In this document: piece by piece, positions 7,763 through 63,976 of the stretch
How positions within the stretch are numbered: position 1 is the first letter of the stretch
Layout: each line of letters opens with the position of its first letter
Origin: an uncultured virus (IMG/VR IMGVR_UViG_3300025543_000015)
Lineage: Duplodnaviria; Heunggongvirae; Uroviricota; Caudoviricetes; Crassvirales
Strand: one strand, 5' to 3'
DNA length: 64,000 bases
Virus record (IMG/VR): IMGVR_UViG_3300025543_000015
Program-made: the position numbers and the translations under genes
Notes under the pieces: model-generated
Told to the model about the DNA's origin: nothing
Database searches by the model: none
The model's input: the letters and a program-made list of their open reading frames with translations, nothing else

Positions 7763-7794
7763 TAACAATAATTAATATATACAATTTATAAATC

Positions 7795-9150
7795 ATGGCA
7801 TTAAACGTATCACCTAGTGCAAAGGTAACACCTACAAGCACTAAGGCAGTCTTAAAGACTAACTATATATCATTGTTTGACTATTCGAGCCAAGAAGCTC
7901 CGGAGACTCACGATGAAATCGCTACCATTTATGGTAAGCAATCTGTATCGGGTATGCTTTACATGTTAGGTGCAGAAGCAGGCTTCGCATCTGATAAAGT
8001 AATATGGACAGAAGAAGGACGTTTACATACAGTTTACACTGATGTAACTCGTTCCGGAGCTGTTTTCACTAAAGCAGGACACGTATTTAGATTAAACGAA
8101 ACAGTACACATCTCTGATGCAACTGTTAAACGTAGAGGTATCATTACAGCAATCGACGATGCTGCAGGAACATTTACAGTAGCTCCTTACAAATCTGCAG
8201 GATTCACTGCATTAGGAACAACTGCATTAACTGTATTCGTTGATGGTTCTGAATACCACAAAGGTACAAACGGAGCTCAAGGTTCATTAGAAACTGACTT
8301 CACAATCTTAGACAACAAGCCTATCATCTTGAAAGATAAGTATGAAGTTAACGGTTCTGATGCAACTCAAATCGGATGGGTAAAAACTTCTAACGGTGGG
8401 TACTTATGGTACTTAGAGTCTGAAAAAGACACACGTAGACGTTGGGAAGATAGATTAGAGACTTCTTTAATCTTAGGAGAAAAAGCCGAAAATGGTTCAG
8501 CAGCTCAAATTGCAGGATATGACGGTACAGAAGGTTTCTTTGAAGCAGTAAGAACTAGAGGTAACTCTTACGCAGGTATTATGTCAGCTCTTGCTGATGT
8601 TGACACTGTTGTAAAACGTTTCGATGCTCAAGGGAAAATTCAAGATTACATGTTCTATTGTGACCGTGACCAATCATTAGCAATTGATAACCTTTTAGGG
8701 ACATTGAATGCAGGTTACTCCGGAGGTATCTCTTACGGTATGTTCGATAACGATAAGGATATGGCTGTAAACTTAGGTTTCAAAGGTTTCACAAGAGGTT
8801 CATACAACTTCTTCAAAACTGATTGGAAATTACTTAATGACCCTACTCTTTTAGGAGCAGTAGCTGCAGCAGCAGGTAAAATCCGTGGAGCTTTAATTCC
8901 TGTTGGAACTAAAGAAGTTTACGAAGGTGAGTACAACGGTAAAGGTGGAGGTGAGAAAATCACTGTACCATTCTTACAACAAAAGTATCGTGTAGCCGGT
9001 GCTGAAAACAGAAAATACAAAACTTGGGTAACAGGTACTGTTGGAGGTGTTTACACAGATGACGAGGATGTAATGAAAGTTCATCACTTATCAGAAAGAA
9101 TGCTTTGTACTACAGGAGCAAACAACTTCATGATTTTCGAAGGGGCATAG
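7795..9150 (+). CDS. major capsid protein
   Basis: 451 aa; strongly biased codon usage; WTEEGRLH, GTEGFF and HHLSERMLC motifs typical of crAss-like MCPs; strong terminator follows. Confidence 0.85.
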   Translation: MALNVSPSAKVTPTSTKAVLKTNYISLFDYSSQEAPETHDEIATIYGKQSVSGMLYMLGAEAGFASDKVIWTEEGRLHTVYTDVTRSGAVFTKAGHVFRLNETVHISDATVKRRGIITAIDDAAGTFTVAPYKSAGFTALGTTALTVFVDGSEYHKGTNGAQGSLETDFTILDNKPIILKDKYEVNGSDATQIGWVKTSNGGYLWYLESEKDTRRRWEDRLETSLILGEKAENGSAAQIAGYDGTEGFFEAVRTRGNSYAGIMSALADVDTVVKRFDAQGKIQDYMFYCDRDQSLAIDNLLGTLNAGYSGGISYGMFDNDKDMAVNLGFKGFTRGSYNFFKTDWKLLNDPTLLGAVAAAAGKIRGALIPVGTKEVYEGEYNGKGGGEKITVPFLQQKYRVAGAENRKYKTWVTGTVGGVYTDDEDVMKVHHLSERMLCTTGANNFMIFEGA

Positions 9151-23100: not shown

Positions 23101-26100
23101 ACCCTGCTTACAAAGCTAAGATAGGTGAAGGTCAGAGAATGGAAAACTATGACGATGCATACAAGTTAGCTGAAAGTTTCAAAAAAGGAAATCAGAATAC
23201 AGCATTCTTTACAGGTAAAGCTGCAGAAGCTTCTAGTAAAGTTCCTTATAAGCCTGTACTAAAGGTTGTGGATAAAAACTCTCCTGTAGCGAAAGCTTAT
23301 GACATTTATTCAGCAGGTGGTAACTTCACAGGTCATATATCTAAGATGATTGCAGGTTTCGCTGAGAAACAAATAAAAGTTGCTGAGGCTATTGTAAAAG
23401 GTAAATTCAAAAGCTTCCTTGACATTGGTGCATCTGAGGGTGGATTAGTTAAGACTGTTGCATCACTAGGTGTAGACAAAGCTGTTGGTATTGACCCTAA
23501 TACTCAAATGATTGCTAACTTCAACTCTACTCCTGCAGTAAAAGGAGCTGAGCTTAGACAAGAGGCATTCCTTGCTTCATGGACTGAGGGTGATGGCACT
23601 AAAATCAACGAGTTTAAACCAAAAGAAAAATTTGAAGTGGTTAACGAAGATTTCGCTTTCCAATTCATGAACAACGATAGAAAAGCTCAAGTAGAAGCTG
23701 TTAAAGGTATGATGACTGACGATGGTGTATTTATTACATCTGAGAAGTTTCATACAGCAAACAGTGAAGCTAATGAGCAAAAGAAATATGACCACCAAAA
23801 GAAGTACTTCAACGAAAGTGAACTAACTGAGGATAAGCAAACCATTATTAGTGGTATGGCTTCTGACATGGTTGGTGATACTGAGTACTTCCAAACTCTT
23901 AAAGATAATTTTGCTTTTGTAGAGGAATTTTGGAATGCAGGTGACTTCAAAGGATACCTAGCATCTGACTCTCAAGCTAAGCTTAATGAGATGAAGAAAA
24001 ATATTGGTGACCTATCTAGTGAGTTCACAGATAAAGAGTCTCAAACATCTAATGAAAATTTAGCTAAGGTAGAAGCTGAGGCTGAACAATTAAACAATGA
24101 GTTAGAGGACTTTTTAGGTGAGGCAAACCCTAACCTACAATTAGACTCTAAAAAAGAAATAACATCCGAAGAGAAGAAGCAAGAGTTAGTAGCTGAGGCT
24201 ACTGCTATGATGGAAGCTGTAGAAGGTGATGGATTTACTGAGGAAGCCTTTACTGCTGAAAATGAACCAAAAGTTGAGGTAACACCTATCACAGTTAAAG
24301 AGAATAGTAAATTAGCTAGTTCTCTTAAGAAGATGGGTCTTAAGGATTTAGTAGGTAAGAAAGTAAACCTAGTAATGGCTGACCAATTAAAGGTTGGTAC
24401 TGTAGATATTAACGGTAAAAAGCTTAGAAGAATGGGTGGACACTTCTTTCCTCTTATAAAAGAGTTGAGAGGTAAAGTTGCTTGGGCTTCTATTAATGAG
24501 ACTGCAGCAATTAAAATTGTTCGTGGTGCTATTAAATCTGACTACACAGTGGTATATAACATGTATCCAAATGCTGTAGATTCAAATTTAGCTATACTTG
24601 AAACAATGATTGAGTCTGTAGCTGCTCTTCCAAAAGCTGTTAATAAGCAAGTATTCGAAGAGTTTAAAACAATGCTACAAACAGGTGTATATGGTGAAGG
24701 TGGTAGAGATACTGAGAAGGTACGTAAATTTGCTGCAGAAGCTAAAAACTTTGGTGATATAGTTGCAGGTATTGGTACACTAGGTGTTGATACAAAAGCT
24801 GCTATCCTTAAGAAGGCTTTACCTTCTAAGAGGGTTAAAGCTTCAACTAAGCTAGGTAGAATATTACAGGATAATAAAATTGATATAGAGGATTTAAGAG
24901 CTCTAAACGTAGAACAGTTTGCTGCAGAATTGCCTGCAGGTGCTATGACTATGGTATTAGAGGTTCACGATAAAAATGGTAACAAAGTTACTTCTGAGAC
25001 TGAGAGGGAAGCATTAATGACTCCGGCTCAACAAAAAGCAGAAGGATTACCAACACATCAAAACTACGATATTTACGTTAGAGGTAAAGCTGTAGCCATG
25101 CTAGAGGAAACTGTTCCATTTTGGAATATGTATAAATCTGCTATGAGCACAATTAACGCTAAGGTAACAGGATTACTTAAACATGGTAAAGGAGAAAAAG
25201 CTAGAGCTTTCACAGCTAAAGAGGCTTATTCAAATGCTATGAGAAGTGCTGATTCTACAGCATCTCAATCTAAAGGATTATCTGAACCGGATGTAAGTAT
25301 GTACGAGAAGTTTATCTCTTTATTAGGAAGAGCTTTCCCTTCTGTACAAGTTATTACAGACACAGCCGAGTTTAACACATTAATGGAAAACTTAACTGCT
25401 AAAGCTTTAACCACTAAAAGTGGTAAAGTTTACGGAGCTGTTTACCAAGGTAAGCTATACTTAAATTCGGGTCTAGCTAACTTTAATACTCCTATTCACG
25501 AGTACGGTCACGTTTGGATTAACACTGTTAAAGAAACTAACAAATCTCTTTATAACAAAGGTATGTCCCTAGTCAAAGGTTCAGAATATGAGGCTTCAAT
25601 ATTAGAGAGTAAAGAGTATACCAAGGTTACTAAACAAATGTTAAAAGAAGGAGCTACACAGGAAGAGGTAGACAATTATATACAAGAGGAAGCTCTAGCA
25701 ACTGCTATTGGAGATAAAGGTGAAGCATTCGTAAAAGCTGCACAAAATAAAAACTTCACCAATTGGTTAAATCAGCTATTCTCATTCGTTAAAAAACTAA
25801 CAGGTATCTCTAAGTATAGTGCTAAGCAATTACAGGATATTACTTTAGGTGAGTTTACTCAAGCTGTGGCTGTAGATATTATGTCCGGTAACGAGGTATT
25901 TAAGAAAGGACAGGTTCAAACTTTGAATGATGCCCTTCAATTATCTATGGGTACAGGCAAATCCTTACAAGAGATTGTAGAGTTTGCAAGAGAAAAAGGA
26001 TATGAGGATGCAGTTATTAAAGCTGCACTAGCTAAGCAAGGTTTCACAAGAGTTCAAGCTGAGACTGCACTAGCCACTATCATTCCTAAAGCAGTTGCAA

Positions 26101-29100
26101 AAGGAGCTGCTGAGGTAGTTAGAACAAATAAACAAAGCAACCTTAAAGCTGATGTGGATGCTGTAGGTATTGCACATGTTAAGAGCACTAAGTGGTATAG
26201 AGGTTTAACAACCAACCAAAAGGATGCACTTAACAAGAAAGGTATCTCAGAGATATTAGGTGGTATGGAAGCTTCATTAAGAAAAGGCTCACAACCTAAT
26301 AAAGAAGGTAAAGCTTTTAGAAATACAGTAAAAGAGGTTACAGGTCAAACAGACCAATCTAGAACTATTGTATCAACTGAGGCTAAGCTTCTTAAAGATA
26401 AATTCAAAGCTATGGAGCGTGGTGCTAAGATTGGTGCTGCAGAGATAAAGAAATTGAAAGCTGAGTTTATTAAAGAGATTTCTGCTAAGCTTAAGGAAAT
26501 AGTTAATAACAAATCTATGTCACTAGCTGAGGCTCGTAGAATATTATCTGCAGTTAACCAGCTTACATTTAGTAACTACGATAGAGTTGCACCATTGGTT
26601 GACAAGGTTATTGACACTATAGAAAATAAAGGTATCAGAAGACAAATAAAACAGACTAAGACTAGATTAAGAAAGTCTTCAAGGTCTGAGAGAAATCCTG
26701 TTAACATGAGAGAGCTTGCAAAACAAGCTGTTAAAGTTAATGAGGCTCACCTTACTTATGCTCAAAGAGTAATATACAATGATATACTATCTGAAATAGC
26801 TAACGGATTCAAAGCTTCTTCAAATAAGAACTACAGAATGCCGAATGAAGAGGATATGATTAAGTCATTAGAGGCTCTTAACAAAGCTGCAGATACAGCT
26901 AGGTTACAGAAGTTAGCTGAGACAATGGGTATTGATGGCTCAAACCTTACTGTTGATGAGCTTGTAGCTTTATTAGAGTCTGAAAATGTAGACGAAGCTA
27001 TTGATGAGATGAAAGCTGAGAAACAAAAGGCAGCTAGAAAAGCTCTTGAGAAACAAGCTGAGTATGCTAGAATGGCGTTAGAGATAGTTGATGAGGCAGA
27101 TATGTCAGAGCAGGAGAGAAAAGACGTTAGAACGCTTCAAAACGCTGATTTAACTTTATTGTCTTCTACAGACCTTAGAGATTTAATTAAGATTGTGGAT
27201 AACATCGCTGAGAATAATAGCTTTGCATCATCCGGAAGTCTAATCTCTAAAGTAAGAGCTTACACAGCTTCAAATGAAGCAGTAGGAGTTTTCAATAAGG
27301 ATGAGTTAAGCATGGTTAGAAAGACTATAATCACAGACTTAAAATCATTAGCTCTTATCTTTAAGAAGGTATTCATGAACACTAAGAAATCGGCTGTATT
27401 TAATAAGCTGTCGGGTCTTGGTAAATTGGGTATGGCTTACACTAGTCACAAGAAAGCTATGAATGCTTTAGCTAAAGAGTACGATAAAATGTTCGCACAG
27501 TTAAGTAAAAAGAATAAAGGTTTAGCTAAGCCGGAGAACACAATGCTCAGAGGTTTAGTTGGACAATTAATTCAAGGTACAACTGCTGAGGATTTTGATA
27601 TAAACAAATCTAGAATAGAAGACCACATAGCACAGTCTAAAAAAGCTCAAGCTAAAAGTACTAGACTAGGTGTTGACGTTTTAGAAAAACAATATGAGAA
27701 ACTAAAAAATCTAAAATCTCAAGATGAGGTTATAAAATATACTAAAGGACTAAACGATGGTAATTGGGAGATAGTTGATTTTTGGTTAAATCACTTTGAC
27801 TCACAAAAGGATGCATTAAAATATAACACTGAGACTATACACGGTAAATCATTTGAAGAGGTTGTGGGTAACTACTTACCAATAAAAATGAAAGCTGATG
27901 GTAAAGTTGTTGAGGATATAGATAACCAACCATTCTTTGATAGAAATGGATTAGCTGCATCTAGTGCATCACCAACTACAATTAAGAGAACTAAGACTAA
28001 GAAGCTTCCTGCAGGTCGTGTATTAGATTTAGATTTTGATTCAGTGATGTTTAATAAAGCTTCTGCAGTATCTATTGACATAGAAACCTCAGCAGCTTAT
28101 AAAGATGTATACAACTTCTTTAGAAGCCCTAACATGGAAAAAATGTTTGGTAATGAAACTATTGGAGTATTTAATAAGAAGTTAGCTGAGATGAGAAAGG
28201 TTCAATTAGGAATTTCTAGTATGAACTTAAATGAAGATGAGGTAACTAAAAATATAACTAAGATTGAAAGAGTTTGGAAATCTGTAGCTACAACTATTGG
28301 ATTAGGTTCTATCACTCAGTACCCTAAGCAGTATATCTCTGTAGCATTTAACGTTATGGCTCACTTAGGTGGACAAAGCGACTTAATGTTCAAAGCTATG
28401 TTTACTGATAAGACTAAAATTCCATTATTAGATATGGTTTCTATATCGTTAAGAGGGGAAACTCAAGCAGGTACAATCACAGGTGGTAATAGAATTTCAG
28501 AAGCTGAAAAGAAAGCTACTAAAGCTATTGCAGGGCAGGTTGCTCAGTTTACAGGTGAGGCTGCAAGTAAAGTTAGGGAGGCACTATTCTTCTCATTAAG
28601 AAAGGGTGATGTTAACGTGGCTAAATCTTCTTGGATTGCTTTCTACCAAAAGTATTTACAGGATGCAGGAGAGACTGATATTGACATGACTACAGAGCAT
28701 TTAAGAAAGGACGAGAAGTTAAGACAAGAGGCAATCTCTTATGCTGAGCTTAAGGTAGAGGAAACACAAATTTCTTCTGATGAGTCTAGAGGCTCTGAGT
28801 TCTACCAATCTAAATCTGTTGATAGGTCTATTTTGAGAAGTATATTCTTACCTTACCAATCGTTCAACATCAACTCAAAAATGAGAATGATGAATGACTT
28901 AGGAATATTAAGTAGCAAGAGAGCTAGTAAAGAAGATAAACGAGAAGCTGCTGCATCTTTAACAGGTACAACTGCTGAGGTTATTACGTTCCACTCAATG
29001 AAGTATTACGTATTAGCTCAAGTGTTTGCTTTAGGTAAATCAGCTTTAGAGGATATGTTCGGATTGGAGCCACCGGAAGAGGATGAAGATGCTAAACAAG

Positions 29101-29606
29101 CTTTTGTATTCAAACAATGGTACTCAGCTTTAGCTAAAGATTTAAACCCCCTATCAATTGGTTCATTTACTGAGGATATTAGTATTGAGGTATTAAACCT
29201 TATTCAATACCTTGCTGAGGCAGAGGGTGACGAAGCTTATATGGATTTCATTAAGCGTAAGAGAGATGACGGAGGACAAATGTTCTACAGATATAAAGAT
29301 AAAGAAGAAAGAGGTCAAGCGTTTGGTGCTAGCTTATTAGGTGGTGGGGGTCTATACCAAATTCCATATACGCAAGCTGCAGAGATGCTTGACAATTTCG
29401 AACTAATTAATACTCAAACTAGAAGAGATGATTATGGTAATTTATTTGAGTATGATTTTGATTCTAGTCAACAACAGTTCTTAAAATTATCATTTGCTGC
29501 AGAGTTTATCTCCTTATTTGGATTAGGTGAAGCAGACTCTAGGAGAGTTATGAGAAAGATTAGAAGAGATATAACAAAGAATACTAAAAAACAAAAAATT
29601 AATTAA
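20157..29606 (+). CDS. giant polyvalent internal virion protein (GNAT-like, SAM-methyltransferase and zincin metallopeptidase domains)
   Basis: 3149 aa; IYIKNGFRPVAR (about 22980), FLDIGASEGG SAM-binding motif (about 23415), TPIHEYGHVW...QEEALATAIG (about 25490-25710). Confidence 0.7.
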   Translation: MNELQEIVKKMIAAGESEENIAIVIKQYNNKATPKEAEVPKGDEAEVVSGVSDSTSAESISSSDSETQNKFPQIERQDPTQEEMDGVNAYVDKLNAPIEIGEDAARAITAPELAKEQKELEAIIASRPIVADNSKEEARLKEINDAFDRLAEPPKSIRKISNEQIAELDKKQDELTTKAVRLAKGTDFSVEEILTNDGTYQDIIKQKNKLHDQKRLEDEVINRVVEDTNSNQDGFFGKVGRMFGGGDEEVTQTAKLSDAIEEEILLSLKGDNRQKEKIAKGYATLDEKETLIANAKVKVITAEKESIINKAKAARAEIEDPAELERTLLNLQTNYDALLGQVGFDKAKGILNNAFEKTDKSQAFDEILSDDGFFGTTADMITTLGEGVTQIALKGTVGFTADIMSSIGDLGFDRDEYSVFDAFSDTVGQITNYNYLPTSKAANTRLFDDAGNLNLTGKTISKSFAETIPFTLAIINDARRGKITNLEVGLGKLVSGTRSAKMTQSLRLIDSAFRHTFSDNIVQAEDLGLTGNDGKIYATTMSSVEGFAEMVMPDTRFFSTTVGDNLKRAFVRDLKSAASKKARVQVAKNFMGNVIGELGEEEIVLAAQDLMGYAMVVGHENSEFWDIANQKQLAAATIIMSTPLSGLNLRRDYKGNIMDFYSKVSENINGITEDLRTELELPHHTTETKQQITNAISWANNLNKAITLAPEGVTGKQVDLLMEKEALVQEKKNLDPAFHAPINEKIKALEAKIEPMNAKTKEVTAAAEKKQKEEDAKRKEREQAARAKRAAAKDVGTRKTSETTETKSVEQQGVQAEGKKEVGKPYTAEEVQETTDAKAFVVAQQTAMANRKEDSKQVEILDEKTAQKIVDDGGKLFVTSDGKSGGYVKKDGYMGGLFKDPTANRSQAAKVLQEARVKAGGKFFDAFGINTETEKGTTLEDIYIKNGFRPVARLSFDANQAPKGWEQTNLKERPDNVFFVYDPAYKAKIGEGQRMENYDDAYKLAESFKKGNQNTAFFTGKAAEASSKVPYKPVLKVVDKNSPVAKAYDIYSAGGNFTGHISKMIAGFAEKQIKVAEAIVKGKFKSFLDIGASEGGLVKTVASLGVDKAVGIDPNTQMIANFNSTPAVKGAELRQEAFLASWTEGDGTKINEFKPKEKFEVVNEDFAFQFMNNDRKAQVEAVKGMMTDDGVFITSEKFHTANSEANEQKKYDHQKKYFNESELTEDKQTIISGMASDMVGDTEYFQTLKDNFAFVEEFWNAGDFKGYLASDSQAKLNEMKKNIGDLSSEFTDKESQTSNENLAKVEAEAEQLNNELEDFLGEANPNLQLDSKKEITSEEKKQELVAEATAMMEAVEGDGFTEEAFTAENEPKVEVTPITVKENSKLASSLKKMGLKDLVGKKVNLVMADQLKVGTVDINGKKLRRMGGHFFPLIKELRGKVAWASINETAAIKIVRGAIKSDYTVVYNMYPNAVDSNLAILETMIESVAALPKAVNKQVFEEFKTMLQTGVYGEGGRDTEKVRKFAAEAKNFGDIVAGIGTLGVDTKAAILKKALPSKRVKASTKLGRILQDNKIDIEDLRALNVEQFAAELPAGAMTMVLEVHDKNGNKVTSETEREALMTPAQQKAEGLPTHQNYDIYVRGKAVAMLEETVPFWNMYKSAMSTINAKVTGLLKHGKGEKARAFTAKEAYSNAMRSADSTASQSKGLSEPDVSMYEKFISLLGRAFPSVQVITDTAEFNTLMENLTAKALTTKSGKVYGAVYQGKLYLNSGLANFNTPIHEYGHVWINTVKETNKSLYNKGMSLVKGSEYEASILESKEYTKVTKQMLKEGATQEEVDNYIQEEALATAIGDKGEAFVKAAQNKNFTNWLNQLFSFVKKLTGISKYSAKQLQDITLGEFTQAVAVDIMSGNEVFKKGQVQTLNDALQLSMGTGKSLQEIVEFAREKGYEDAVIKAALAKQGFTRVQAETALATIIPKAVAKGAAEVVRTNKQSNLKADVDAVGIAHVKSTKWYRGLTTNQKDALNKKGISEILGGMEASLRKGSQPNKEGKAFRNTVKEVTGQTDQSRTIVSTEAKLLKDKFKAMERGAKIGAAEIKKLKAEFIKEISAKLKEIVNNKSMSLAEARRILSAVNQLTFSNYDRVAPLVDKVIDTIENKGIRRQIKQTKTRLRKSSRSERNPVNMRELAKQAVKVNEAHLTYAQRVIYNDILSEIANGFKASSNKNYRMPNEEDMIKSLEALNKAADTARLQKLAETMGIDGSNLTVDELVALLESENVDEAIDEMKAEKQKAARKALEKQAEYARMALEIVDEADMSEQERKDVRTLQNADLTLLSSTDLRDLIKIVDNIAENNSFASSGSLISKVRAYTASNEAVGVFNKDELSMVRKTIITDLKSLALIFKKVFMNTKKSAVFNKLSGLGKLGMAYTSHKKAMNALAKEYDKMFAQLSKKNKGLAKPENTMLRGLVGQLIQGTTAEDFDINKSRIEDHIAQSKKAQAKSTRLGVDVLEKQYEKLKNLKSQDEVIKYTKGLNDGNWEIVDFWLNHFDSQKDALKYNTETIHGKSFEEVVGNYLPIKMKADGKVVEDIDNQPFFDRNGLAASSASPTTIKRTKTKKLPAGRVLDLDFDSVMFNKASAVSIDIETSAAYKDVYNFFRSPNMEKMFGNETIGVFNKKLAEMRKVQLGISSMNLNEDEVTKNITKIERVWKSVATTIGLGSITQYPKQYISVAFNVMAHLGGQSDLMFKAMFTDKTKIPLLDMVSISLRGETQAGTITGGNRISEAEKKATKAIAGQVAQFTGEAASKVREALFFSLRKGDVNVAKSSWIAFYQKYLQDAGETDIDMTTEHLRKDEKLRQEAISYAELKVEETQISSDESRGSEFYQSKSVDRSILRSIFLPYQSFNINSKMRMMNDLGILSSKRASKEDKREAAASLTGTTAEVITFHSMKYYVLAQVFALGKSALEDMFGLEPPEEDEDAKQAFVFKQWYSALAKDLNPLSIGSFTEDISIEVLNLIQYLAEAEGDEAYMDFIKRKRDDGGQMFYRYKDKEERGQAFGASLLGGGGLYQIPYTQAAEMLDNFELINTQTRRDDYGNLFEYDFDSSQQQFLKLSFAAEFISLFGLGEADSRRVMRKIRRDITKNTKKQKIN

Positions 29607-30292
29607 TGATTCCAACAAATAAACAAAAGAGAGCAGCCCACCTTAGATGGTGGGTTGCTATATTTCCGGTAGGTGCTGTAGCTGTAATAAGCTCACCCTT
29701 TATAGCTCCTGTAGCTTGGTTAGTAGAAAAAGTGCTACCAAATAATAATCCCTTATGGTGGTGGTTAGATGATGAGATACACGACCCTAAAATGAATGAG
29801 GATTGGTTAGAGTTTAAACAACGTAAAGATTGGTGGGCTTGGATAGATTGGCACTGCTTTAGAAATTCAATGTGGAACTTAAAAGCTTCATTAACACCGG
29901 AGAGTTCTATTGACTTCTGTAAAACTAATGATGAGGTGGTAGTGGAATTGATTAAATATGATGTAGTTAGAAATGGTCAACCCGTACCAATAGATACACC
30001 ATGCTTAGAAATGCCTGTGGTTCGTTGGATTGATAAACACGGTAACGATGGTTGGAATACTACATCCGGAATAAAAGTAAATGAAGAGAAGACAGCTTGG
30101 GGAGAGTTACACTATTGGTACACAGCCAACAGTCAACTAAACTTTAGGGAAGGTTTTGTTAGAGAGAAGACAGGATATATAATCCATGGTAAGTTTCCAT
30201 TCTTCGGTAAGAAGACCTACTACCACAGGGTAGCTAAAGGAGCTAACGAAAAGCGTTATGTCTACACAAATAAGAAACAGATTAAACCTTAA
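29606..30292 (+). CDS. Trp-rich hypothetical protein, possibly membrane-associated
   Basis: 228 aa with hydrophobic N-terminus; coupled to the previous gene (TAATG). Confidence 0.65.
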   Translation: MIPTNKQKRAAHLRWWVAIFPVGAVAVISSPFIAPVAWLVEKVLPNNNPLWWWLDDEIHDPKMNEDWLEFKQRKDWWAWIDWHCFRNSMWNLKASLTPESSIDFCKTNDEVVVELIKYDVVRNGQPVPIDTPCLEMPVVRWIDKHGNDGWNTTSGIKVNEEKTAWGELHYWYTANSQLNFREGFVREKTGYIIHGKFPFFGKKTYYHRVAKGANEKRYVYTNKKQIKP

Positions 30293-30297
30293 ACAAG

Positions 30298-30333
30298 AAA
30301 ACCCCCAACCATATCGGAAGGGGGTTTATTTTT
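30298..30333. terminator. bidirectional terminator at convergence of + and - gene blocks
   Basis: AAAACCCCC-AACCATATCGGAA-GGGGGTTTATTTTT. Confidence 0.75.
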
Positions 30334-30334
30334 G

Positions 30335-30402
30335 TGGTCACAGTAGGGATTGAACCTACGACCTATCCCTTATGAGGGGAGTGCTCTACCTCTGAGCTAT
30401 GT
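30335..30402 (-). tRNA. tRNA-CAT (Met or Ile2) with 5' acceptor strand truncated; probable pseudo-tRNA
   Basis: D arm TAGCTCAGAGGTAGAGC, loop CT-CAT-AA, T arm GTAGG-TTCAATC-CCTAC, 3' strand TGTGACC-A; only ACA of the 5' strand pairs. Confidence 0.7.
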
Positions 30403-30404
30403 TG

Positions 30405-30488
30405 TAGCGAGAGTGGGACTCGAACCCACGGGGTCTTTCGACATGGGGATATGAACCCCACAAGCTTCCATCTACTGACTACCTCGCT
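30405..30488 (-). tRNA. tRNA-Met(CAT), initiator-like anticodon stem, long variable arm
   Basis: AGCGAGG/TCTCGCT acceptor, TGGGG-TTCATAT-CCCCA, variable hairpin GTC-GAAA-GAC, GTGGG-TTCGAGT-CCCAC. Confidence 0.8.
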
Positions 30489-30498
30489 ATATATTATG

Positions 30499-30506
30499 CA
30501 AATATA
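30499..30506 (-). promoter_or_regulatory. TAnnTTTG promoter for the CAT tRNAs
   Basis: TATATTTG on - strand 10 nt upstream of the tRNA. Other - strand boxes at 31184, 32121, 34409, 35050, 45750, 51960, 52500, 58224 and 61311. Confidence 0.7.
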
Positions 30507-30554
30507 AGCAAAATTATTTACATAATGTTACATTAACTAACATTTAACTTTTAG

Positions 30555-30641
30555 AGCAGCAGGTGAGATTCGAACTCACGGTGTGACATTATCTGACTAG
30601 CTTGGAAGGCTAGTACAATCGACCAACTATGCGACTGCTGC
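30555..30641 (-). tRNA. tRNA-Gly(TCC) with 17-nt variable region
   Basis: GCAGCAG/CTGCTGC acceptor, U73, CTAGC-CTTCCAA-GCTAG, GTGAG-TTCGAAT-CTCAC. Confidence 0.85.
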
Positions 30642-30647
30642 AATTTG

Positions 30648-30720
30648 TAGAAACAATAGGATTTGAACCTATGACCCTCTCGGTATCAGCGAGGTGCTCT
30701 ACCAACTGAGCTATGCTTCT
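30648..30720 (-). tRNA. tRNA-Ile(GAT)
   Basis: Canonical cloverleaf, loop CT-GAT-AC. Confidence 0.9.
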
Positions 30721-30726
30721 ATTTAG

Positions 30727-30800
30727 TACTCCCTCTTGGACTCGAACCAAGGGCATTCCCCTTAAAAAGGGGGAGCTCTAACCAACTGAGCTAAGGAAGC
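30727..30800 (-). tRNA. tRNA-Lys(TTT)
   Basis: Canonical cloverleaf, loop TT-TTT-AA. Confidence 0.9.
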
Positions 30801-30805
30801 AATTG

Positions 30806-30878
30806 TGGAGAAGAAGGGAATTGAACCCTCGAGGCTTGCAGTGCAAGTGCAAGTGTCTAGCCAACACGACACATCCCC
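30806..30878 (-). tRNA. tRNA-Ala(TGC)
   Basis: G3:U70 pair, loop CT-TGC-AC, GAGGG-TTCAATT-CCCTT. Confidence 0.85.
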
Positions 30879-30881
30879 ATT

Positions 30882-30913
30882 AAAAAAGCCCTAACAAATA
30901 AATGCTAGGGCTT
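30882..30913 (-). terminator. attenuator terminator 1, upstream of tRNA cluster 1
   Basis: AAGCCCTAGC-ATTTATTT-GTTAGGGCTT-TTTT ending 3 nt before tRNA-Ala. Confidence 0.85.
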
Positions 30914-30938
30914 CGGATACGTTAAAATTACCTACAAT

Positions 30939-31013
30939 CTAACATAGCATGGAAAGCCCTAGGAAGTTTCTCCCCACGGTCTTATCAATCGCTATTGTAA
31001 TAATTGTGTTCAT
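30939..31013 (-). CDS. leader peptide 1, MNTIITIAIDKTVGRNFLGLSMLC
   Basis: 24-codon ORF containing CTAGGGCTT, the exact complement of the terminator 5' arm. Confidence 0.75.
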   Translation of the reverse strand: MNTIITIAIDKTVGRNFLGLSMLC

Positions 31014-31030
31014 TGAATGTTTAATCTTTT

Positions 31031-31159
31031 TTACTTGTTAATTTTGTCGTCAATCTTGTCAACGATGCCTGCTACTTTTTTTGCTAGGCTTGGATTGTTT
31101 CTTAATACTAAGAAGAAGCCTACTGCTCCTACTACTACTCCTGCTATAAATGAAATCAT
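31031..31159 (-). CDS. small membrane protein (42 aa)
   Basis: MISFIAGVVVGAVGFFLVLRNNPSLAKKVAGIVDKIDDKINK, downstream of promoter 31184-31191; not in the ORF track. Confidence 0.7.
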   Translation of the reverse strand: MISFIAGVVVGAVGFFLVLRNNPSLAKKVAGIVDKIDDKINK

Positions 31160-31215
31160 ACTTATACTTTTTTAAGTTAGGTGCAAATATACAAAAAAAT
31201 TTTTAATACCACAAA

Positions 31216-31629
31216 TTAATCAGTACCTTTTATTTTTGCATTAGCTACACGATAGTTTCTTTCATCTCTTTTCTTAGCTTTATGTGCTTGAAGTTTCTTA
31301 TCATAAGCAATTTTCTTCTCAGCCCTTTTACGGTCTACAGGATTGGTAGTTCTTGTGTAAGTACCATCATGAGATTTATAACCGGACATTTTACCACCCT
31401 TATTTTTAATGGTAGTGCCTTTATACTTTACCGAAGGTCTGTACTCGCTGTCTTTATTGCCTGTTTTAGCATCTTTTACAGATTTACTAGAAACCTCATA
31501 CTTGCTACCACTTTTTGTTTTAGCTATGTGTGTTTTAGCTTTCTTTTTGTCGGTGTTAGCTGTACTAGCTAATTTTGTTCTTGGGTCAGACAGCTTTACA
31601 GGGTCTGATTTACTTTTTCGTTTTGCCAT
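31216..31629 (-). CDS. Lys-rich basic protein
   Basis: 137 aa, highly basic. Confidence 0.65.
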   Translation of the reverse strand: MAKRKSKSDPVKLSDPRTKLASTANTDKKKAKTHIAKTKSGSKYEVSSKSVKDAKTGNKDSEYRPSVKYKGTTIKNKGGKMSGYKSHDGTYTRTTNPVDRKRAEKKIAYDKKLQAHKAKKRDERNYRVANAKIKGTD

Positions 31630-31631
31630 GT

Positions 31632-32105
31632 TTATTGTTTTTTAGATTCAATTACAAAGATACTAAAATTATCCTTACCCTTAAAAAGCTCATCTAATTG
31701 ACTCTCCCAAAAGTCTATATCTTCATAGGGTCTAAAATTTATAGGTGCTATAGGACTCATCAACCCTGTTCCACTGTGACCAATATTGAAAATTGAATGT
31801 GTTAGCTCATGAAAAACCACTAACTTCAACACTGCTTTATCTAAAGAACAGTAAGAGCTCATAGCCACTATATAACCATCCTTTGTGGCTATCCCTAATG
31901 TTGGGTAGTTAAGGAGATTAGTTAATACAATCATCTGCATGTTATTTATATGTGGAGTAACATCTATACACCTCTCTGCAGCCTCTGCTATATATTCTTC
32001 CACTATTGGCTTGAGTATTGGGTCAATGTGCACATAGGAAGTTTTTTGACCAAAAAAATCCCCTGTAAATAATACAAGGGATATTAACACTAATAATTTT
32101 TTCAT
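31632..32105 (-). CDS. secreted/membrane zinc metallopeptidase (metzincin-like)
   Basis: Signal peptide; HELTHSIFNIGH and LM Met-turn. Confidence 0.75.
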   Translation of the reverse strand: MKKLLVLISLVLFTGDFFGQKTSYVHIDPILKPIVEEYIAEAAERCIDVTPHINNMQMIVLTNLLNYPTLGIATKDGYIVAMSSYCSLDKAVLKLVVFHELTHSIFNIGHSGTGLMSPIAPINFRPYEDIDFWESQLDELFKGKDNFSIFVIESKKQ

Positions 32106-32128
32106 ATCTACCTGTTTTTACAAAGATA

Positions 32129-33055
32129 CTAAAAATTGTTATACGCCACGTTAAAGACTTTAAGACCTAAAGCTCGTGCTCGTCTAACTACTTGTAGCCT
32201 GTCATCAAACATTCCTACAATATAATTATCCTCAGCAATCTTTCTCCACATCTCCTCCTTCACAACCCAATCCGGTCTTTGGTCACCTTTAGGTCTGATG
32301 TATATTTCATCATAAAAAATACCATTATCAGATAACCACTTCTTAGTCTCATCTATACAAACAGCATCTCTGCCTGTACATATTATAACTTTAGTGCTAG
32401 TCATCTCTTCATAGTAGGGTGTCAAAGCTTGTGATATAACCTTAGTAGGATAATCTATTACATCCTCCCCAACCTTGTGCCAATCATAAGGACTTCTAGT
32501 AGCCCTGTCCATATGAGACAATGTTCCATCAATGTCAAATATTACACAATTAGTGTTATCGGGATTTTGACTAAGCTGAACCGGAGTAAAATCTATAGGA
32601 TTTTTAGCCAACTCTACCATTAAACTAGTAAATCTGTTATATTGCTTCTCAATTACGTGCTCTCCAACGCTTCTGCTTCTCATAGAGTCTCTATTTAAGG
32701 CATCTGCCTTGCTGATTTCAAATATCAAAACCTCAGCGTGTACGTTCCAATACTTAAATCTCTCTAAGTACTTGTATGTCAAGTGTGTAGCATCCGCTAT
32801 TACTGTCTTACCAAAATTAAGACCTTCATTGATTAAAGTGTCTTCGTACCTAGTAACCTTCTTTTCAAGACCTGCTACATCATTTCTTAAGTAGTAATCT
32901 TCTATACCTGACTCGGTAAAGCCAAACATAAGCTCTCTGATTTTATCCCTATTGACTATAGTATACTTTGAAGGGTCTTCCAACCACTTCTTGTGAGCCC
33001 AAGTACTTTTACCCGAGCCGCTGATTCCAATTGTTATTATTAAATTTCCTTTCAT
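32129..33055 (-). CDS. pseT: polynucleotide 5'-kinase/3'-phosphatase (T4 PseT-like)
   Basis: P-loop GISGSGKST, VNRDKIR, HAD motif FDIDGT, TGR, RPDWVVK, FDDR. Confidence 0.92.
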   Translation of the reverse strand: MKGNLIITIGISGSGKSTWAHKKWLEDPSKYTIVNRDKIRELMFGFTESGIEDYYLRNDVAGLEKKVTRYEDTLINEGLNFGKTVIADATHLTYKYLERFKYWNVHAEVLIFEISKADALNRDSMRSRSVGEHVIEKQYNRFTSLMVELAKNPIDFTPVQLSQNPDNTNCVIFDIDGTLSHMDRATRSPYDWHKVGEDVIDYPTKVISQALTPYYEEMTSTKVIICTGRDAVCIDETKKWLSDNGIFYDEIYIRPKGDQRPDWVVKEEMWRKIAEDNYIVGMFDDRLQVVRRARALGLKVFNVAYNNF

Positions 33056-33071
33056 TACTTTATTAATTTTA

Positions 33072-34379
33072 TTAGTTCAAAGATTCTATATCAGCTTCAC
33101 CATTATCTAGTTCTTGGCTTTCAAATTCTAAGAACCTAAAGCTCTTAAGCTTATATGACTTACATTCAAATAAATCTTCCACTCTCACAACTACACCTTC
33201 TTCCGGTACTTTGTTTGTACACATGAAGCAGTCTTTTTCGTTGTAAGCCTTCTCTAACCTCTCTATGAAATTTTTTCTCCAAGTCTCTAAGGTAGTGCTG
33301 TAATCAGTGTTGTACCAATCACCTGCTTTACCATAGAAGAATAAGTGAGAAGCTGCTAATCCAACTCTATCACAGAACTCTTTAATCTGAGGGTAGGTAA
33401 GCTCAGTAACTAAACCATCTGGAGTGGTATTGGTGATTCTGTATACCTCTAGCTTGTGCCAAACATTACCTTGGCAACCATAATCAAAATGTTTTTGAAT
33501 AGCTTTACCATTTCTATCGTAACCTAACATTTCACCATATAGAGTCCAACCTTTAGGTATATGCTCACCAATATCATTTTTTATAGTCTCCCACAAGTCA
33601 TAACCAAAGAAGTGGTCTTTAGATTTTGGGTCTTCTAGGTTAGCATTCTTAACCACCTTTCTAGAGCCATAGACTAAATCATACACTAGTTCTGATACAC
33701 TTGCACCAAAAAATTTAGAAACCTTCTCTATAAGGCTTAATTTACGTTTTACTAAAACATTTCCGACCCACCAAGATGTACCGTGTGTTTTATATGTAAT
33801 AGAAATTAAATCTGTAGGCTCAATTTTGTGTATGTTCTTACGAAGATTTTCAGTATCAACATGTAGATGTACTTGACCTTCTACCAATCTTGAAAGCTTT
33901 GGCTTCTTACCAACTCTAGCTTGTGCACCACCCTTAACAGGTACTTGGTACTTCTCAACTAGAAGTTGACCATTAATAGTGTCAAACTCTTTACCTACAT
34001 AATCACCAATATAGCCATCCAACCTACCCCACTGCTCAACAAGTCTAGCAGGTACAATATATCCCATGGATTTCTCACCACGTAGTTTCATAGCCTTAAC
34101 CCTGCAGTTATCCTCAAAGAAACCTTTTTGGTAAGGGTCTGCATTCAATGTATTGTCTCTAAATGAGTTTGTTGACGAGAGTAAGTTTTGAGATATTTTA
34201 CTCTCGATTGGAAAATAGACGTAAATGTCGCCCTCGTTGGCATCTAAACCTGTAATGACATTGTTGAAGTCAATTGAGACCATTTGTAGCCTGTCAGCGT
34301 TAGGATGCTTCTTAAGACCCTTTAACGATACCACCTTACATAAGTAGTTTGGATTTGCGTTTTTACTAATTTCTAACAT
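33072..34379 (-). CDS. RNA ligase (Rnl2/DRB0094-like) with N-terminal tRNA-binding OB-like domain
   Basis: KHPNADRL N-terminus, motif I TYKTHGTS, LYGEM, PEEGVVVR, YKLKSFRF. Confidence 0.85.
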   Translation of the reverse strand: MLEISKNANPNYLCKVVSLKGLKKHPNADRLQMVSIDFNNVITGLDANEGDIYVYFPIESKISQNLLSSTNSFRDNTLNADPYQKGFFEDNCRVKAMKLRGEKSMGYIVPARLVEQWGRLDGYIGDYVGKEFDTINGQLLVEKYQVPVKGGAQARVGKKPKLSRLVEGQVHLHVDTENLRKNIHKIEPTDLISITYKTHGTSWWVGNVLVKRKLSLIEKVSKFFGASVSELVYDLVYGSRKVVKNANLEDPKSKDHFFGYDLWETIKNDIGEHIPKGWTLYGEMLGYDRNGKAIQKHFDYGCQGNVWHKLEVYRITNTTPDGLVTELTYPQIKEFCDRVGLAASHLFFYGKAGDWYNTDYSTTLETWRKNFIERLEKAYNEKDCFMCTNKVPEEGVVVRVEDLFECKSYKLKSFRFLEFESQELDNGEADIESLN

Positions 34380-34455
34380 TTTATTTAAGTTTTATATTAA
34401 ATTCTATGCAAAGATAAGTAAAATAATTTACATGACAATAAAAAAAGTAAAAAAG

Positions 34456-34527
34456 TTTTCCTAGAGAGATTTGAACTCCCACTTCAAGGCTCGTAACCAA
34501 GTGTTCTATCCATTAAACTATAGGAAA
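34456..34527 (-). tRNA. tRNA-Arg(ACG), weak anticodon stem
   Basis: TTTCCTA/TAGGAAA acceptor, loop TT-ACG-AG, GGGAG-TTCAAAT-CTCTC. Confidence 0.75.
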
Positions 34528-34618
34528 ATAATTACCCTAGGGTTTTACTGCAGGTAGCATACCTAGGGTGATAGTGAAGTATTTTTGTCACAAATTTAGC
34601 ATATAATTGTGACAGTAG

Positions 34619-34701
34619 TACCGAGTGTGGGCTTCGAACCCACAAGACACAAGGTCGGCAAGTTTTAAGCCTGCTGCGTTTACCAGTTTCACCAACTCGG
34701 C
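34619..34701 (-). tRNA. tRNA-Leu(TAA)
   Basis: Type II cloverleaf, loop CT-TAA-AA. Confidence 0.9.
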
Positions 34702-34711
34702 ATTTAATCTG

Positions 34712-34792
34712 TAGCATCGGTGGGAATCGAACCCACAAAACTCTAGGGTTTAAGCCTAGGCACTCTACCATTCGCTTTTACGTCACGATGCT
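34712..34792 (-). tRNA. non-canonical tRNA with TAA anticodon (Leu?)
   Basis: AGCATCG/CGATGCT acceptor, CTAGG-CTTAAAC-CCTAG, short variable loop, enlarged D region. Confidence 0.7.
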
Positions 34793-34807
34793 ATTTTGTA
34801 ACATTAG

Positions 34808-34877
34808 TCTAAAAGGTAGGTAACGCTCCTACTTACTCCTACTTCCAAGGCAGGCATGTTACTATAATCGCTTCTAG
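34808..34877 (-). tRNA. tRNA-Pro(TGG), atypical T loop and reduced D arm
   Basis: CTAGAAG/CTTTTAG acceptor, CCTGC-CTTGGAA-GTAGG, T arm GTAGG-AGCGTTA-CCTAC. Confidence 0.65.
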
Positions 34878-34881
34878 GTAT

Positions 34882-34909
34882 AAAAAAACCTCCTAATTGC
34901 TTAGGAGGT
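34882..34909 (-). terminator. attenuator terminator 2, upstream of tRNA cluster 2
   Basis: ACCTCCTAA-GCAA-TTAGGAGGT-TTTTTT ending 4 nt before tRNA-Pro. Confidence 0.85.
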
Positions 34910-34945
34910 CTTTATCTTTATTAATTTAAAACTAAAACATGAATA

Positions 34946-35032
34946 CTAATACCTAAAGTTTACGCATAAAGAGTACTCCCAATTTCCACTAGGTTGTTCC
35001 AAAAGCTCTATATGTAAGCGTAATTTTCTCAT
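34946..35032 (-). CDS. leader peptide 2, MRKLRLHIELLEQPSGNWEYSLCVNFRY
   Basis: 28-codon ORF 17 nt downstream of promoter 35050-35057; contains the antiterminator segment. Confidence 0.75.
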   Translation of the reverse strand: MRKLRLHIELLEQPSGNWEYSLCVNFRY

Positions 35033-35079
35033 TTTTATTATTATCTATGCAAATATACGAATTAAATTAATACCCCTTT

Positions 35080-35271
35080 TTAAAATCTATTAATCCTTTC
35101 GGTAAGAATGTTCAAATAATTAATCATAGCCTTTAGCTGCAGTTTTAAAAGGTCTTGGTCATCTTGGTCTAGCTCATCAAAAGCCTCTGTTAAAATAAAC
35201 TTACCCAACTTCTCCATCTTATCTTTGAGTTCTGTTCCCTCATCAATAACTCTTTGTTTGTAGTCTTCCAT
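35080..35271 (-). CDS. small helical protein (crAss001_48-like)
   Basis: MEDYKQRVIDE..EL..K..KL..FI...LL..Q...M..Y..IL..RI pattern. Confidence 0.65.
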   Translation of the reverse strand: MEDYKQRVIDEGTELKDKMEKLGKFILTEAFDELDQDDQDLLKLQLKAMINYLNILTERINRF

Positions 35272-35273
35272 AA

Positions 35274-35435
35274 TTAAATTAGTTTTTTGTAGTGTACAAT
35301 AAGCTTATGCACCTTACTGTCGTAGTAGCTATCGAACTCTTTGTAGCCTTCGTCATCTTTTTGATACAGTGCATAGAAAACATTTCTAAGCTGCTTTGAG
35401 GGTGACACCTCTTTTATTTTTCTAGTCCTACTCAT
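35274..35435 (-). CDS. small hypothetical protein (53 aa)
   Basis: MSRTRKIKEVSPSKQLRNVFYALYQ...; fills the intergenic gap; not in the ORF track. Confidence 0.6.
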   Translation of the reverse strand: MSRTRKIKEVSPSKQLRNVFYALYQKDDEGYKEFDSYYDSKVHKLIVHYKKLI

Positions 35436-36129
35436 TTCCTTTAAGTTTTAAGTATGCTGAATAATAAGCAGAAATCTCTTCTGTTATCTCTTGAACCTGT
35501 TTTAATACCTCAACACATCTCTTTTTTGAGATTGGTCTATCTATTAGTTCAGCCTCTTTAGTTAAGGTAAGCTCCTCACCTGCAAAAGCATTCCCTGCTC
35601 TGCCAATAAGTACTACAGAACCTTTGTCGGGATACTTCCCAAACTCTTGTTCTAGAGCTGCTGCGTAGATGTCAACCTGTAGGTAATCATCAGCTTTATA
35701 CTCCGGTGCTCTCTTCTCAATCTCACCCGTCTTGTAATCAACTAATTCCTTAACATACATAACAGGTTCTTCACCCCCCTTGTTACCAATCTCCGGAGCA
35801 GTGTTTGTATCTATAAATCCTAATACATAGAACCCTTTCATCTTAAGCTTAATCTTCTTCTCAAACTCATCAAAGTGAGGTAGGGTCTGCAAAAACTTAG
35901 CTTCATCCTTATCCCACGCTGAGTAATCATTGTTCTCATAAGCCTCACCAACCTTGTGACCAAAATCTCCGTACTTCTGTAGGGCTGCATTGTCATCCGG
36001 TTCACCAAAGAAGTACTTTCGCATGTACTCTCTTTTATTACGTTTCCATTTACTAATCTGCGAGTAGGAGATATAATAATTTCCGTCCTCGTCTTTTCTA
36101 GGTAATACTAATTGCTTTACTTTACTCAT
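35428..36129 (-). CDS. PD-(D/E)XK (Cas4/RecB-like) nuclease
   Basis: ISYSQI, GFID, LVDYKTG, QVDIYA. Confidence 0.8.
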   Translation of the reverse strand: MSKVKQLVLPRKDEDGNYYISYSQISKWKRNKREYMRKYFFGEPDDNAALQKYGDFGHKVGEAYENNDYSAWDKDEAKFLQTLPHFDEFEKKIKLKMKGFYVLGFIDTNTAPEIGNKGGEEPVMYVKELVDYKTGEIEKRAPEYKADDYLQVDIYAAALEQEFGKYPDKGSVVLIGRAGNAFAGEELTLTKEAELIDRPISKKRCVEVLKQVQEITEEISAYYSAYLKLKGNE

Positions 36130-63826: not shown

Positions 63827-63916
63827 ATGAAAAATTTTAACATATATTATAATTGCTTTAGTTGGTCGAATAACCAACAGGGTGAGTTATGTGTTAAAGT
63901 GAAGATAAGTATTTAG
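63827..63916 (+). CDS. leader peptide 3, MKNFNIYYNCFSWSNNQQGELCVKVKISI
   Basis: 29-codon ORF with A-rich upstream region, ends in TAG, followed by a terminator. Confidence 0.65.
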   Translation: MKNFNIYYNCFSWSNNQQGELCVKVKISI

Positions 63917-63943: not shown

Positions 63944-63976
63944 AAGCCCTTAGCATTTATGTTAGGGGCTTTTTTT
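63944..63976 (+). terminator. attenuator terminator 3
   Basis: AAGCCCTTAGC-ATTTAT-GTTAGGGGCTT-TTTTT, near-identical to terminator 1. Confidence 0.8.

Follow-up and report, generated by a model that had tools for sequence, protein, structure and literature searches.

The window analysed here is a 64,000-nucleotide (nt) stretch of DNA from an uncultured virus of the Crassvirales (IMG/VR record IMGVR_UViG_3300025543_000015), and the element in question, a putative attenuator of the tRNA genes behind it, lies at positions 30882-31013 on the minus strand. The window, which is phage DNA, has approximately 36% G+C, and its strand bias switches near 30 kilobases (kb) and again near 60 kb. ARAGORN detected eight tRNA genes in the window, and Rfam added one more at 30340-30402. 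DNA matches around the element came from Maribacter phage Panino and Cellulophaga phages phi38:1 and phi40:1 and were located chiefly over the tRNA genes. The element begins with a short open reading frame (ORF), hereafter leader L1, of which homologues were found in eight other sequences. The parts of this unit, all on the minus strand, are as follows.

31184..31191, minus strand: promoter-like -7 box TATATTTG of the unit with the 42-amino-acid (aa) ORF, L1 and the tRNA genes, found by motif search.
31031..31159, minus strand: 42-aa ORF with one hydrophobic helix, directly upstream of L1, with 43% identity to its Panino and phi38:1 counterparts.
30939..31013, minus strand: leader ORF L1, 24 codons plus TAG (ATG at 31013, TAG at 30941-30939), MNTIITIAIDKTVGRNFLGLSMLC.
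30969..31010, minus strand: regulatory codons 2-15 of L1 (N T I I T I A I D K T V G R).
30953..30962, minus strand: segment A, the 5' strand of the putative antiterminator, CTAGGGCTTT, in a 10-base-pair (bp) duplex with 30914-30905.
30903..30914, minus strand: segment B, the 5' arm of the terminator, common to terminator and antiterminator.
30882..30896, minus strand: segment C, the 3' arm of the terminator (30896-30885) with the end of the T6 run at 30882.
30554..30878, minus strand: tRNA genes behind L1, namely, Ala(UGC), Lys(UUU), Ile(GAU), and Gly(UCC), detected by ARAGORN.

The L1 ORF carries isoleucine at codons 4, 5, 7, and 9 together with the codons GCG, AAG, and GGG, as a first-pass annotation of the same DNA had described. 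A 24-nt spacer separates its stop codon from the terminator hairpin at 30914-30885, for which a folding energy of -18.2 kcal/mol was calculated, and the T6 run behind the hairpin ends at 30882, 4 nt before the tRNA-Ala gene at 30878. Within the ORF, CTAGGGCTT (30962-30954) is the exact reverse complement of AAGCCCTAG in the terminator arm (30913-30905); this 9-nt complement had also been pointed out in the first-pass annotation, and a terminal G-U pair extends the A:B duplex to 10 bp, with an energy of -16.0 kcal/mol. When the 96 nt upstream were shuffled with preserved dinucleotides, 17 of 5000 shuffles paired equally well with the terminator arm. The whole 157-nt L1 region folded with -43.3 kcal/mol (z = -4.4), and none of 200 shuffles was as stable. 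An inner hairpin across the stop codon, which had been suggested to extend the antiterminator, was predicted as a structure nested in the antiterminator once the 5' part was masked. In these computational results, L1 of the window (W-L1) combines a short ORF with clustered codons, an intrinsic terminator before the tRNA genes and a predicted antiterminator that excludes the terminator and depends on the position of the ribosome.

In total, 20 units were collected with the same layout of a short ORF, a spacer of 20 to 49 nt, a hairpin with a T-run and then tRNA genes or tRNA-like sequence. They came from the window (three), Maribacter phage Panino (two), Cellulophaga phages phi38:1 (three), phi4:1 (three), and phi10:1 (one), Tenacibaculum phage Gundel_1 (one), two IMG/VR contigs, L014 and L024 (three together), and four metagenome contigs (four); the records of the named phages place them in different genera or families. 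Despite strong divergence, the in-frame start and stop codons were kept in all 20 units, with lengths of 20 to 32 codons. The tRNA genes form a common cassette of three blocks, each in a conserved order: Ala-Lys-Ile-Gly-Met-Asp-Thr-Val-Arg(UCU)-Met, Pro-Glu-Gln-His-Leu-Leu-Arg(ACG), and Tyr-Ser-Ser-Asn-Trp-Phe-(Cys).

The codons of the leaders follow these blocks. We defined three classes, S1, S2, and S3, from the three tRNA blocks, which partition the 20 amino acids, with arginine split by codon family: S1, for leader type L1, contains Ala, Lys, Ile, Gly, Met, Asp, Thr, Val, and Arg(AGA); S2, for L2, contains Pro, Glu, Gln, His, Leu, and Arg(CGN); and S3, for L3, contains Tyr, Ser, Asn, Trp, Phe, and Cys. 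Among codons 2-15, 12 to 14 of 14 fell in the own class in L1 leaders (background 0.54), 10 to 11 of 14 in L2 leaders (background 0.24), and 10 to 11 of 14 in L3 leaders (background 0.22). All 15 leaders tested showed enrichment for the own class (binomial tails from 1.2e-5 to 1.4e-2), and W-L3, which was counted separately, had 12 of 14 own-class codons, so that all 16 leaders counted were enriched. Small ORFs are common in the window, which contains 268 ATG-initiated ORFs of 19 to 45 codons over all six frames. Among these, W-L1, with 13 of 14 early codons in S1, was the sole ORF to reach at least 13 of 14 (class with Arg AGR), and W-L2 was the sole ORF to reach its 10 of 14 in S2; 10 of 14 in S3 was reached by five of the 268, L3 among them. 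The off-class codons were mostly the two after the ATG, often Lys-Thr. Arginine also follows the codon family: in the regulatory stretches of L1 it is encoded by AGA, ahead of blocks with Arg(UCU), and in the core of L2 by CGN, ahead of Arg(ACG), with the exception of an AGA at codon 2 of W-L2 and I14-L2. Over the nine sources of L1 leaders, the order of residues varied and class membership was kept. The first-pass annotation had described L1 as an Ile/Thr-rich leader; the leader instead samples up to nine amino acids. Its expectation that relatives would carry tRNAs for Thr, Asp, and Val in this cluster was borne out in Panino, phi38:1, and phi4:1, and L024 has Asp before the locus ends.

The two strands of the putative antiterminator also change together. 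The terminator stems differ strongly between units, and segment A changes along with them. The summed energy of cognate A:B pairings was -202.3, compared with a permutation mean of -166.8, and none of 20000 permutations reached the cognate sum. For the terminator arm of W-L1, its own leader ranked first of 19 (z = -6.8), and the cognate leader ranked first of 19 in five units, W-L1 included. In a MAFFT alignment of the nine L1 sequences, 72% of the cells of the W-L1 antiterminator helix were paired, and both sides changed in four of 10 pairs, compared with 1.2 ± 0.9 in shuffles (five of 500 shuffles reached four). The covariation score of this helix was 0.194, compared with 0.095 in shuffles, none of 500 of which reached the observed value. 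A register one column over paired 75.6% of cells, which reflects the GGGGAGG/CCUCCCC register of other L1 members.

Folding predictions suggest how such a pairing might respond to a ribosome. In 20 of 20 units, the 3' part of the ORF contains a segment A that pairs with B, with 5 to 12 bp and energies of -7.2 to -17.3 kcal/mol. We folded transcripts that stop at the last base of B, placing a ribosome at successive codons and masking from the start to 15 nt past the first base of the A-site codon (an assumed footprint). With the ribosome masked up to approximately codons 13-15, A was predicted to hold B before C exists; with the ribosome beyond approximately codons 16-18, this hold was gone in 14 of the 20 units. 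In W-L1, a ribosome at codons 4-12 left 9 to 10 of the 12 bases of B held, and a ribosome at codon 22 or beyond left none held, which places the predicted switch between codons 12-14 and 22. The first-pass annotation had proposed that stalling at early codons allows read-through and that a ribosome reaching the stop favors termination; the hold of A on B at codons 4-12 agrees with this, whereas the full-length terminator fold stayed the stabler one throughout. Without a ribosome, A held at least five bases of B in 17 of 20 units. In the other three, W-L1, p38-L3, and p4-L2, A was locked in a long hairpin with the region of the regulatory codons and the terminator formed; in the models, this unribosomed state is four-segment, trp-like logic.

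In eight units, the leader ATG lies 4 nt behind the end of a box resembling TAnnTTTG, which we take to be the Bacteroidota -7 box. The Bacteroidota promoter consensus places the transcription start approximately 4 nt past the -7 box. The leader mRNAs of these units would therefore be leaderless, and the units would contain just leader, terminator, and tRNAs. A sigma-70 promoter scan is not meaningful for Bacteroidota. In phi38:1, a near-identical promoter stretch of 30-odd nt precedes all three leaders (504-539, 1980-2000, and 3223-3243 in locus L300). Ahead of L1, the window, Panino, phi38:1, and L024 have an ORF of 42 to 49 aa with one hydrophobic helix, of which the four metagenome contigs show the C-terminal part; the stop codon of this small ORF overlaps the leader ATG (TAATG) in L024 and in three of those four contigs. 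A Pfam search with the 42-aa ORF returned no family.

Contigs from public RNA libraries (SOLiD, four runs of two studies) cover all three phi38:1 leaders and bridge the L1 terminator in four runs and the L3 terminator in three runs; such contigs carry no ends or levels and may include DNA carry-over. They lend weak support, in that RNA libraries contain these regions and joined molecules exist. The phi38:1 L2 terminator was crossed by no contig among the matches listed for the four runs. Short contigs at the phi38:1 L2 leader (3219-3317 and 3219-3322, in runs of two studies) had a k-mer depth of approximately 2400, compared with approximately 280 downstream, a contrast that we did not use since contig depth and gaps are no measure of termination. 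The phi38:1 RNA-sequencing contigs break or join at the promoter repeats.

These results suggest that the element is a ribosome-mediated (leader-peptide) transcription attenuator of a phage tRNA operon, one of three in this phage, and we put the probability of this reading at roughly 0.8. Transcription would start at a Bacteroidota-type promoter, which for W-L1 would lie upstream of the 42-aa ORF and in many relatives 4 nt before the ATG, and a ribosome would translate the leader while RNA polymerase nears the terminator ahead of the first tRNA gene. Codons 2-15 would be taken from the amino acids (for arginine, the codon family) for which the leader has tRNA genes behind it. With ample charged tRNAs, the ribosome would pass A and reach the stop codon, leaving B free to pair with C, and transcription would terminate with the operon off. 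If any one tRNA were scarce, the ribosome would stall on the early codons (approximately 2-14), A would pair with the emerging B, no terminator would form, and polymerase would read through into the tRNA genes. Judged from these sequence features, each phage tRNA operon is most likely under negative feedback from the supply of its own tRNAs, and the presumed outcome would be that each group of tRNAs is matched to demand.

Several observations weigh against this attenuator reading or narrow it. Under strict wobble rules and with the tRNAs actually behind the leader, seven of 14 early codons of W-L1 are read (expected fraction 0.23, p = 0.02), and the p value exceeded 0.05 in five of 18 units tested, four of them on truncated loci and the fifth being p4-L1; strict-wobble decoding matches are weaker than those of the amino-acid classes. 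In the window, the cluster behind L1 lacks tRNA genes for the leader's Thr, Asp, Val, and Arg(AGA) codons. A simple terminator scan of the minus strand did not list the L1 hairpin, likely because the longest stem takes three of the six T residues and leaves a tail too short for the rule. W-L1 has no promoter of its own. In nine units, the cognate leader ranked 10 to 17 of 19 for its terminator arm, the arms being generic C-rich/G-rich sequences. In the six units where the hold on B persisted in masked folding, W-L1 included, at least five bases of B were still held through other upstream partners with the mask at codons 20-26. At full length, the terminator was favored in every masked state of W-L1, with a probability of 0.98 (-25.0 compared with -20.0 kcal/mol), and read-through in W-L1 must therefore be a kinetic effect, that is, a kinetic trap; antitermination in the trp operon and other classical attenuators is likewise kinetic. 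Across units, A lies between -2 and 33 nt from the stop codon, so a ribosome covering A at the stop is not a full explanation in every unit, and the way in which a translating ribosome blocks A:B probably differs between units. In addition, the 20 units belong to one common tRNA cassette and are therefore not 20 independent inventions.

Three other explanations were weighed against the attenuator reading. The one that survives best, which we nevertheless regard as unlikely, is a translation-sensing attenuator that reports general ribosome activity and not particular tRNAs. The structural switch responds to ribosome position alone, A holds B without a ribosome in most units so that untranslated RNA would read through, and upstream-ORF attenuators for general translation stress are known. 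A general sensor, however, needs no particular codons, yet the three leader types keep three non-overlapping sets that mirror the tRNA blocks down to the arginine codon family, and the order of residues drifts while class membership stays. A second explanation, with a very small chance of being right in our judgment, is a plain operon-end terminator or insulator next to an unrelated or chance small ORF, with the tRNAs expressed by leaky read-through and nothing sensed. The hairpin and T-run of an ordinary operon-end terminator are present at L1, a 24-codon ORF is a common thing in AT-rich DNA such as this window, W-L1 lacks its own promoter, the terminator is the thermodynamically favored fold, and RNA-library contigs bridge the phi38:1 L1 and L3 terminators. 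Such a terminator predicts neither a competing pairing nor a codon-matched ORF, however, and it leaves unexplained the class enrichment in 16 of 16 leaders, the joint change of the complement and the terminator arm, and the promoter 4 nt before the ATG in eight units. Least probable of all is a translation-independent RNA switch or factor-dependent terminator, with T-box-like tRNA binding or a protein on the G-rich segment: the G-rich A (often GGGGAGG) and an ATAGCG in L1 are conserved at the nucleotide level and the T-box is a known tRNA-sensing terminator switch, but in all 20 units the start and stop are kept in frame, as is the codon series, and an Rfam search of 30000-35500 (E ≤ 1) gave 14 matches, to tRNA-clan models and at chance level, without a T-box or amino-acid leader family.

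The other two units of the window have the following parts.

35057-35050, minus strand: -7 box TATATTTG directly before the L2 leader.
35032-34946, minus strand: L2 leader ORF, MRKLRLHIELLEQPSGNWEYSLCVNFRY.
34982-34976, minus strand: segment A of L2.
34910-34887, minus strand: terminator hairpin of L2, with a T-run to 34882.
34701-34618 and 34527-34455, minus strand: tRNA genes Leu(UAA) and Arg(ACG), respectively, which follow tRNA-like sequence behind L2.
63827-63916, plus strand: L3 leader ORF, MKNFNIYYNCFSWSNNQQGELCVKVKISI.
63879-63883, plus strand: segment A of L3.
63944-63971, plus strand: terminator hairpin of L3 with 12 pairs and a T-run to 63976, listed by the simple terminator scan.

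Behind the L3 terminator comes a tRNA-like 5' end, which runs off the end of the window. The L2 leader is rich in Ser, Asn, Trp, Tyr, Cys, and Phe codons in its second half, over segment A and behind it, which is the class of the L3 block (eight of 13 codons at 34946-34990 on the minus strand of the window and seven of 13 at 5419-5463 in L014); these L3-class codons might reflect cross-regulation or a relic. In the approximately 180 nt between the L2 terminator and tRNA-Leu (34702-34881, minus strand), tRNA-like pieces are present. One of them carries CTTGGAA, which resembles an anticodon loop for Pro (UGG), and another, at 34712-34791, was detected weakly. tRNAs for Pro and Glu occupy this position in Panino, phi38:1, and phi4:1, and L014 has the same undetected Pro-like piece and then tRNA-Glu behind L2.

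Of the four tRNA genes behind L1, three were matched by the Rfam tRNA model, and the best score of the Ala gene was a match to the transfer-messenger RNA (tmRNA) clan. The tRNA with the Gly(UCC) anticodon (30554-30641, minus strand) is odd, with 88 nt and a long extra arm. A tRNA with a CAU anticodon (30404-30488, minus strand) is similarly odd, with 85 nt and a long extra arm; it lies behind its own TTATATTTG box and has no leader. The tRNA at 30340-30402 (minus strand, Rfam 50.8 bits), missed by the default ARAGORN run, is a further CAU tRNA. In Panino, a permuted tmRNA (Rfam RF04321, 62.2 bits) sits between Asp and Thr in the tRNA block at 7591-7799 of locus L019.

Between the two minus-strand tRNA clusters lie a gene for a polynucleotide kinase-phosphatase (32132-33055, minus strand; PF25109 at 1.5e-34 and a P-loop kinase domain) and an RNA-ligase-like gene (33075-34379, minus strand; PF09414 and PF21189, each slightly below the Pfam cut-off); next to the tRNA island, these two look like a tRNA-repair pair. 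An ORF of 3149 aa (20157-29606, plus strand) converges on the tRNA cluster and had no match in a Pfam search; at the corresponding place, Panino has an 1829-aa ORF that its record annotates as a tRNA methyltransferase. Pfam searches with the neighboring proteins of 137, 157, and 228 aa likewise returned no match.

In searches for further relatives, the 137-aa and 228-aa neighbors led to nothing beyond one uncultured IMG/VR contig nearly identical to the window. An alignment search with the 42-aa ORF gave five loci, and the four other than that of the window had no tRNAs. The RNA-ligase neighbor gave eight loci, with tRNAs in L014 alone among the seven scanned; in the IMG/VR loci L012 and L013, the ligase is 66 to 68% identical and no tRNA genes occur within 6 kb, and the tRNA island has therefore been gained or lost among close relatives. 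A pattern scan of IMG/VR with the L2 motif gave four loci, of which two were real, and a second L2-motif scan gave 33 loci, with a leader and tRNAs in two (the L024 contig and phi4:1). Among the matches listed from an L2-motif scan of genome contigs (at least 120 loci), none had a tRNA within 400 nt, and with so narrow a pattern this says little about hosts. The L1-motif scan of metagenomes gave at least 117 loci, five of them real among the matches listed, one of these five being identical to L024. Calle_1 and phi38:1, and phi17:2 and phi4:1, are too alike for a test of synonymous against non-synonymous change.

We see an even chance that a mobile tRNA island made of three demand-sensing operons is common to several families of flavobacterial phages, and that the often leaderless leaders of these operons poll exactly the codons of their own tRNAs and jointly cover all 20 amino acids. 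Such an island would be a self-regulating spare translation kit, switched on when the host tRNA pool fails, for example after cleavage by an anticodon nuclease, and here its neighbors, a polynucleotide kinase-phosphatase and an RNA ligase, could mend tRNAs that had been cut.

Phages have been known to carry tRNA genes for more than 50 years, and the reason is still debated. The main proposals are codon compensation and escape from tRNA-cutting defenses (PMC10264068, PMC11555353). How expression of phage tRNA genes is controlled has hardly been addressed. A full-text literature search over the text accessible to it, with subscription literature not covered, found no paper in which tRNA genes of phages or bacteria are controlled by a leader peptide, and term searches within the accessible parts of phage-tRNA papers found no mention of attenuators, leader peptides, or terminators. 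An attenuator-like leader of E. coli tRNA-Phe genes was not borne out at pheV, where the 106 nt upstream contain neither a Phe-rich ORF nor a terminator. If the attenuator reading is true, the phage would measure the very quantity that its tRNAs supply, and its leader sequences would state the shortages it expects; this would be the first trp-style attenuation acting on tRNA genes, and it would work in Bacteroidota on leaderless messages. The units could then provide a simple portable sensor for the supply of specific tRNAs, and the long-standing question of phage tRNAs would become directly testable in a culturable marine system that is harmless, namely, Cellulophaga baltica with phi38:1 or phi4:1.

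Among known systems, the T-box shares with the phage units a choice between terminator and antiterminator upstream of translation-related genes and a reading of tRNA status by codon-anticodon pairing. The T-box, however, binds one uncharged tRNA directly without a ribosome, whereas the phage units have an in-frame ORF with many codons. Attenuators with an upstream ORF (uORF) include the erm and cat leaders, the topAI-yjhQ uORF, and the whiB7 uORF. Some uORF attenuators sense translation stress (PMC12121999). As in these, stalling in a small upstream ORF of the phage units would lift downstream termination or occlusion; stress uORF attenuators respond to drugs or general slowdown, whereas the codons of the phage leaders are matched to the regulated tRNAs.

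The pheM leader attenuates pheST, which encodes phenylalanyl-tRNA synthetase. The phage units resemble it in that a component of the translation machinery would be attenuated by sensing the charged tRNA that the product helps make; pheM/pheST, by contrast, is bacterial, concerns a synthetase for one amino acid, and includes no tRNA genes. The multivalent leaders of enterobacteria include thr (Thr/Ile) and ilvGMEDA and ilvBN (Ile/Val/Leu), next to trpL, hisL, leuL, and pheL. The phage units share with enterobacterial leaders a short, presumably translated leader with clustered regulatory codons, an intrinsic terminator, an exclusive antiterminator that would depend on the ribosome, and more than one amino acid per leader. 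To our knowledge, the leader-peptide attenuators described so far all control amino-acid biosynthesis or synthetase genes; behind the phage terminators lie tRNA genes instead of these, and the regulated product would be the very molecule sensed. Whereas enterobacterial leaders have runs of one to three amino acids, the phage leaders sample up to nine, mostly once or twice each, and three of them divide all 20 amino acids among them. The phage units also differ in showing no similarity to Rfam leader families and in that most of them (17 of 20) are three-segment units, for which read-through would be expected without translation. Bacteroidota do not rely on Shine-Dalgarno pairing, and many of the phage leaders, unlike those of enterobacteria, are on apparently leaderless mRNAs. 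The phage units thus differ from known leader-peptide attenuators in the genes controlled, the breadth of codons, the three-way partition of the code, and the leaderless layout.

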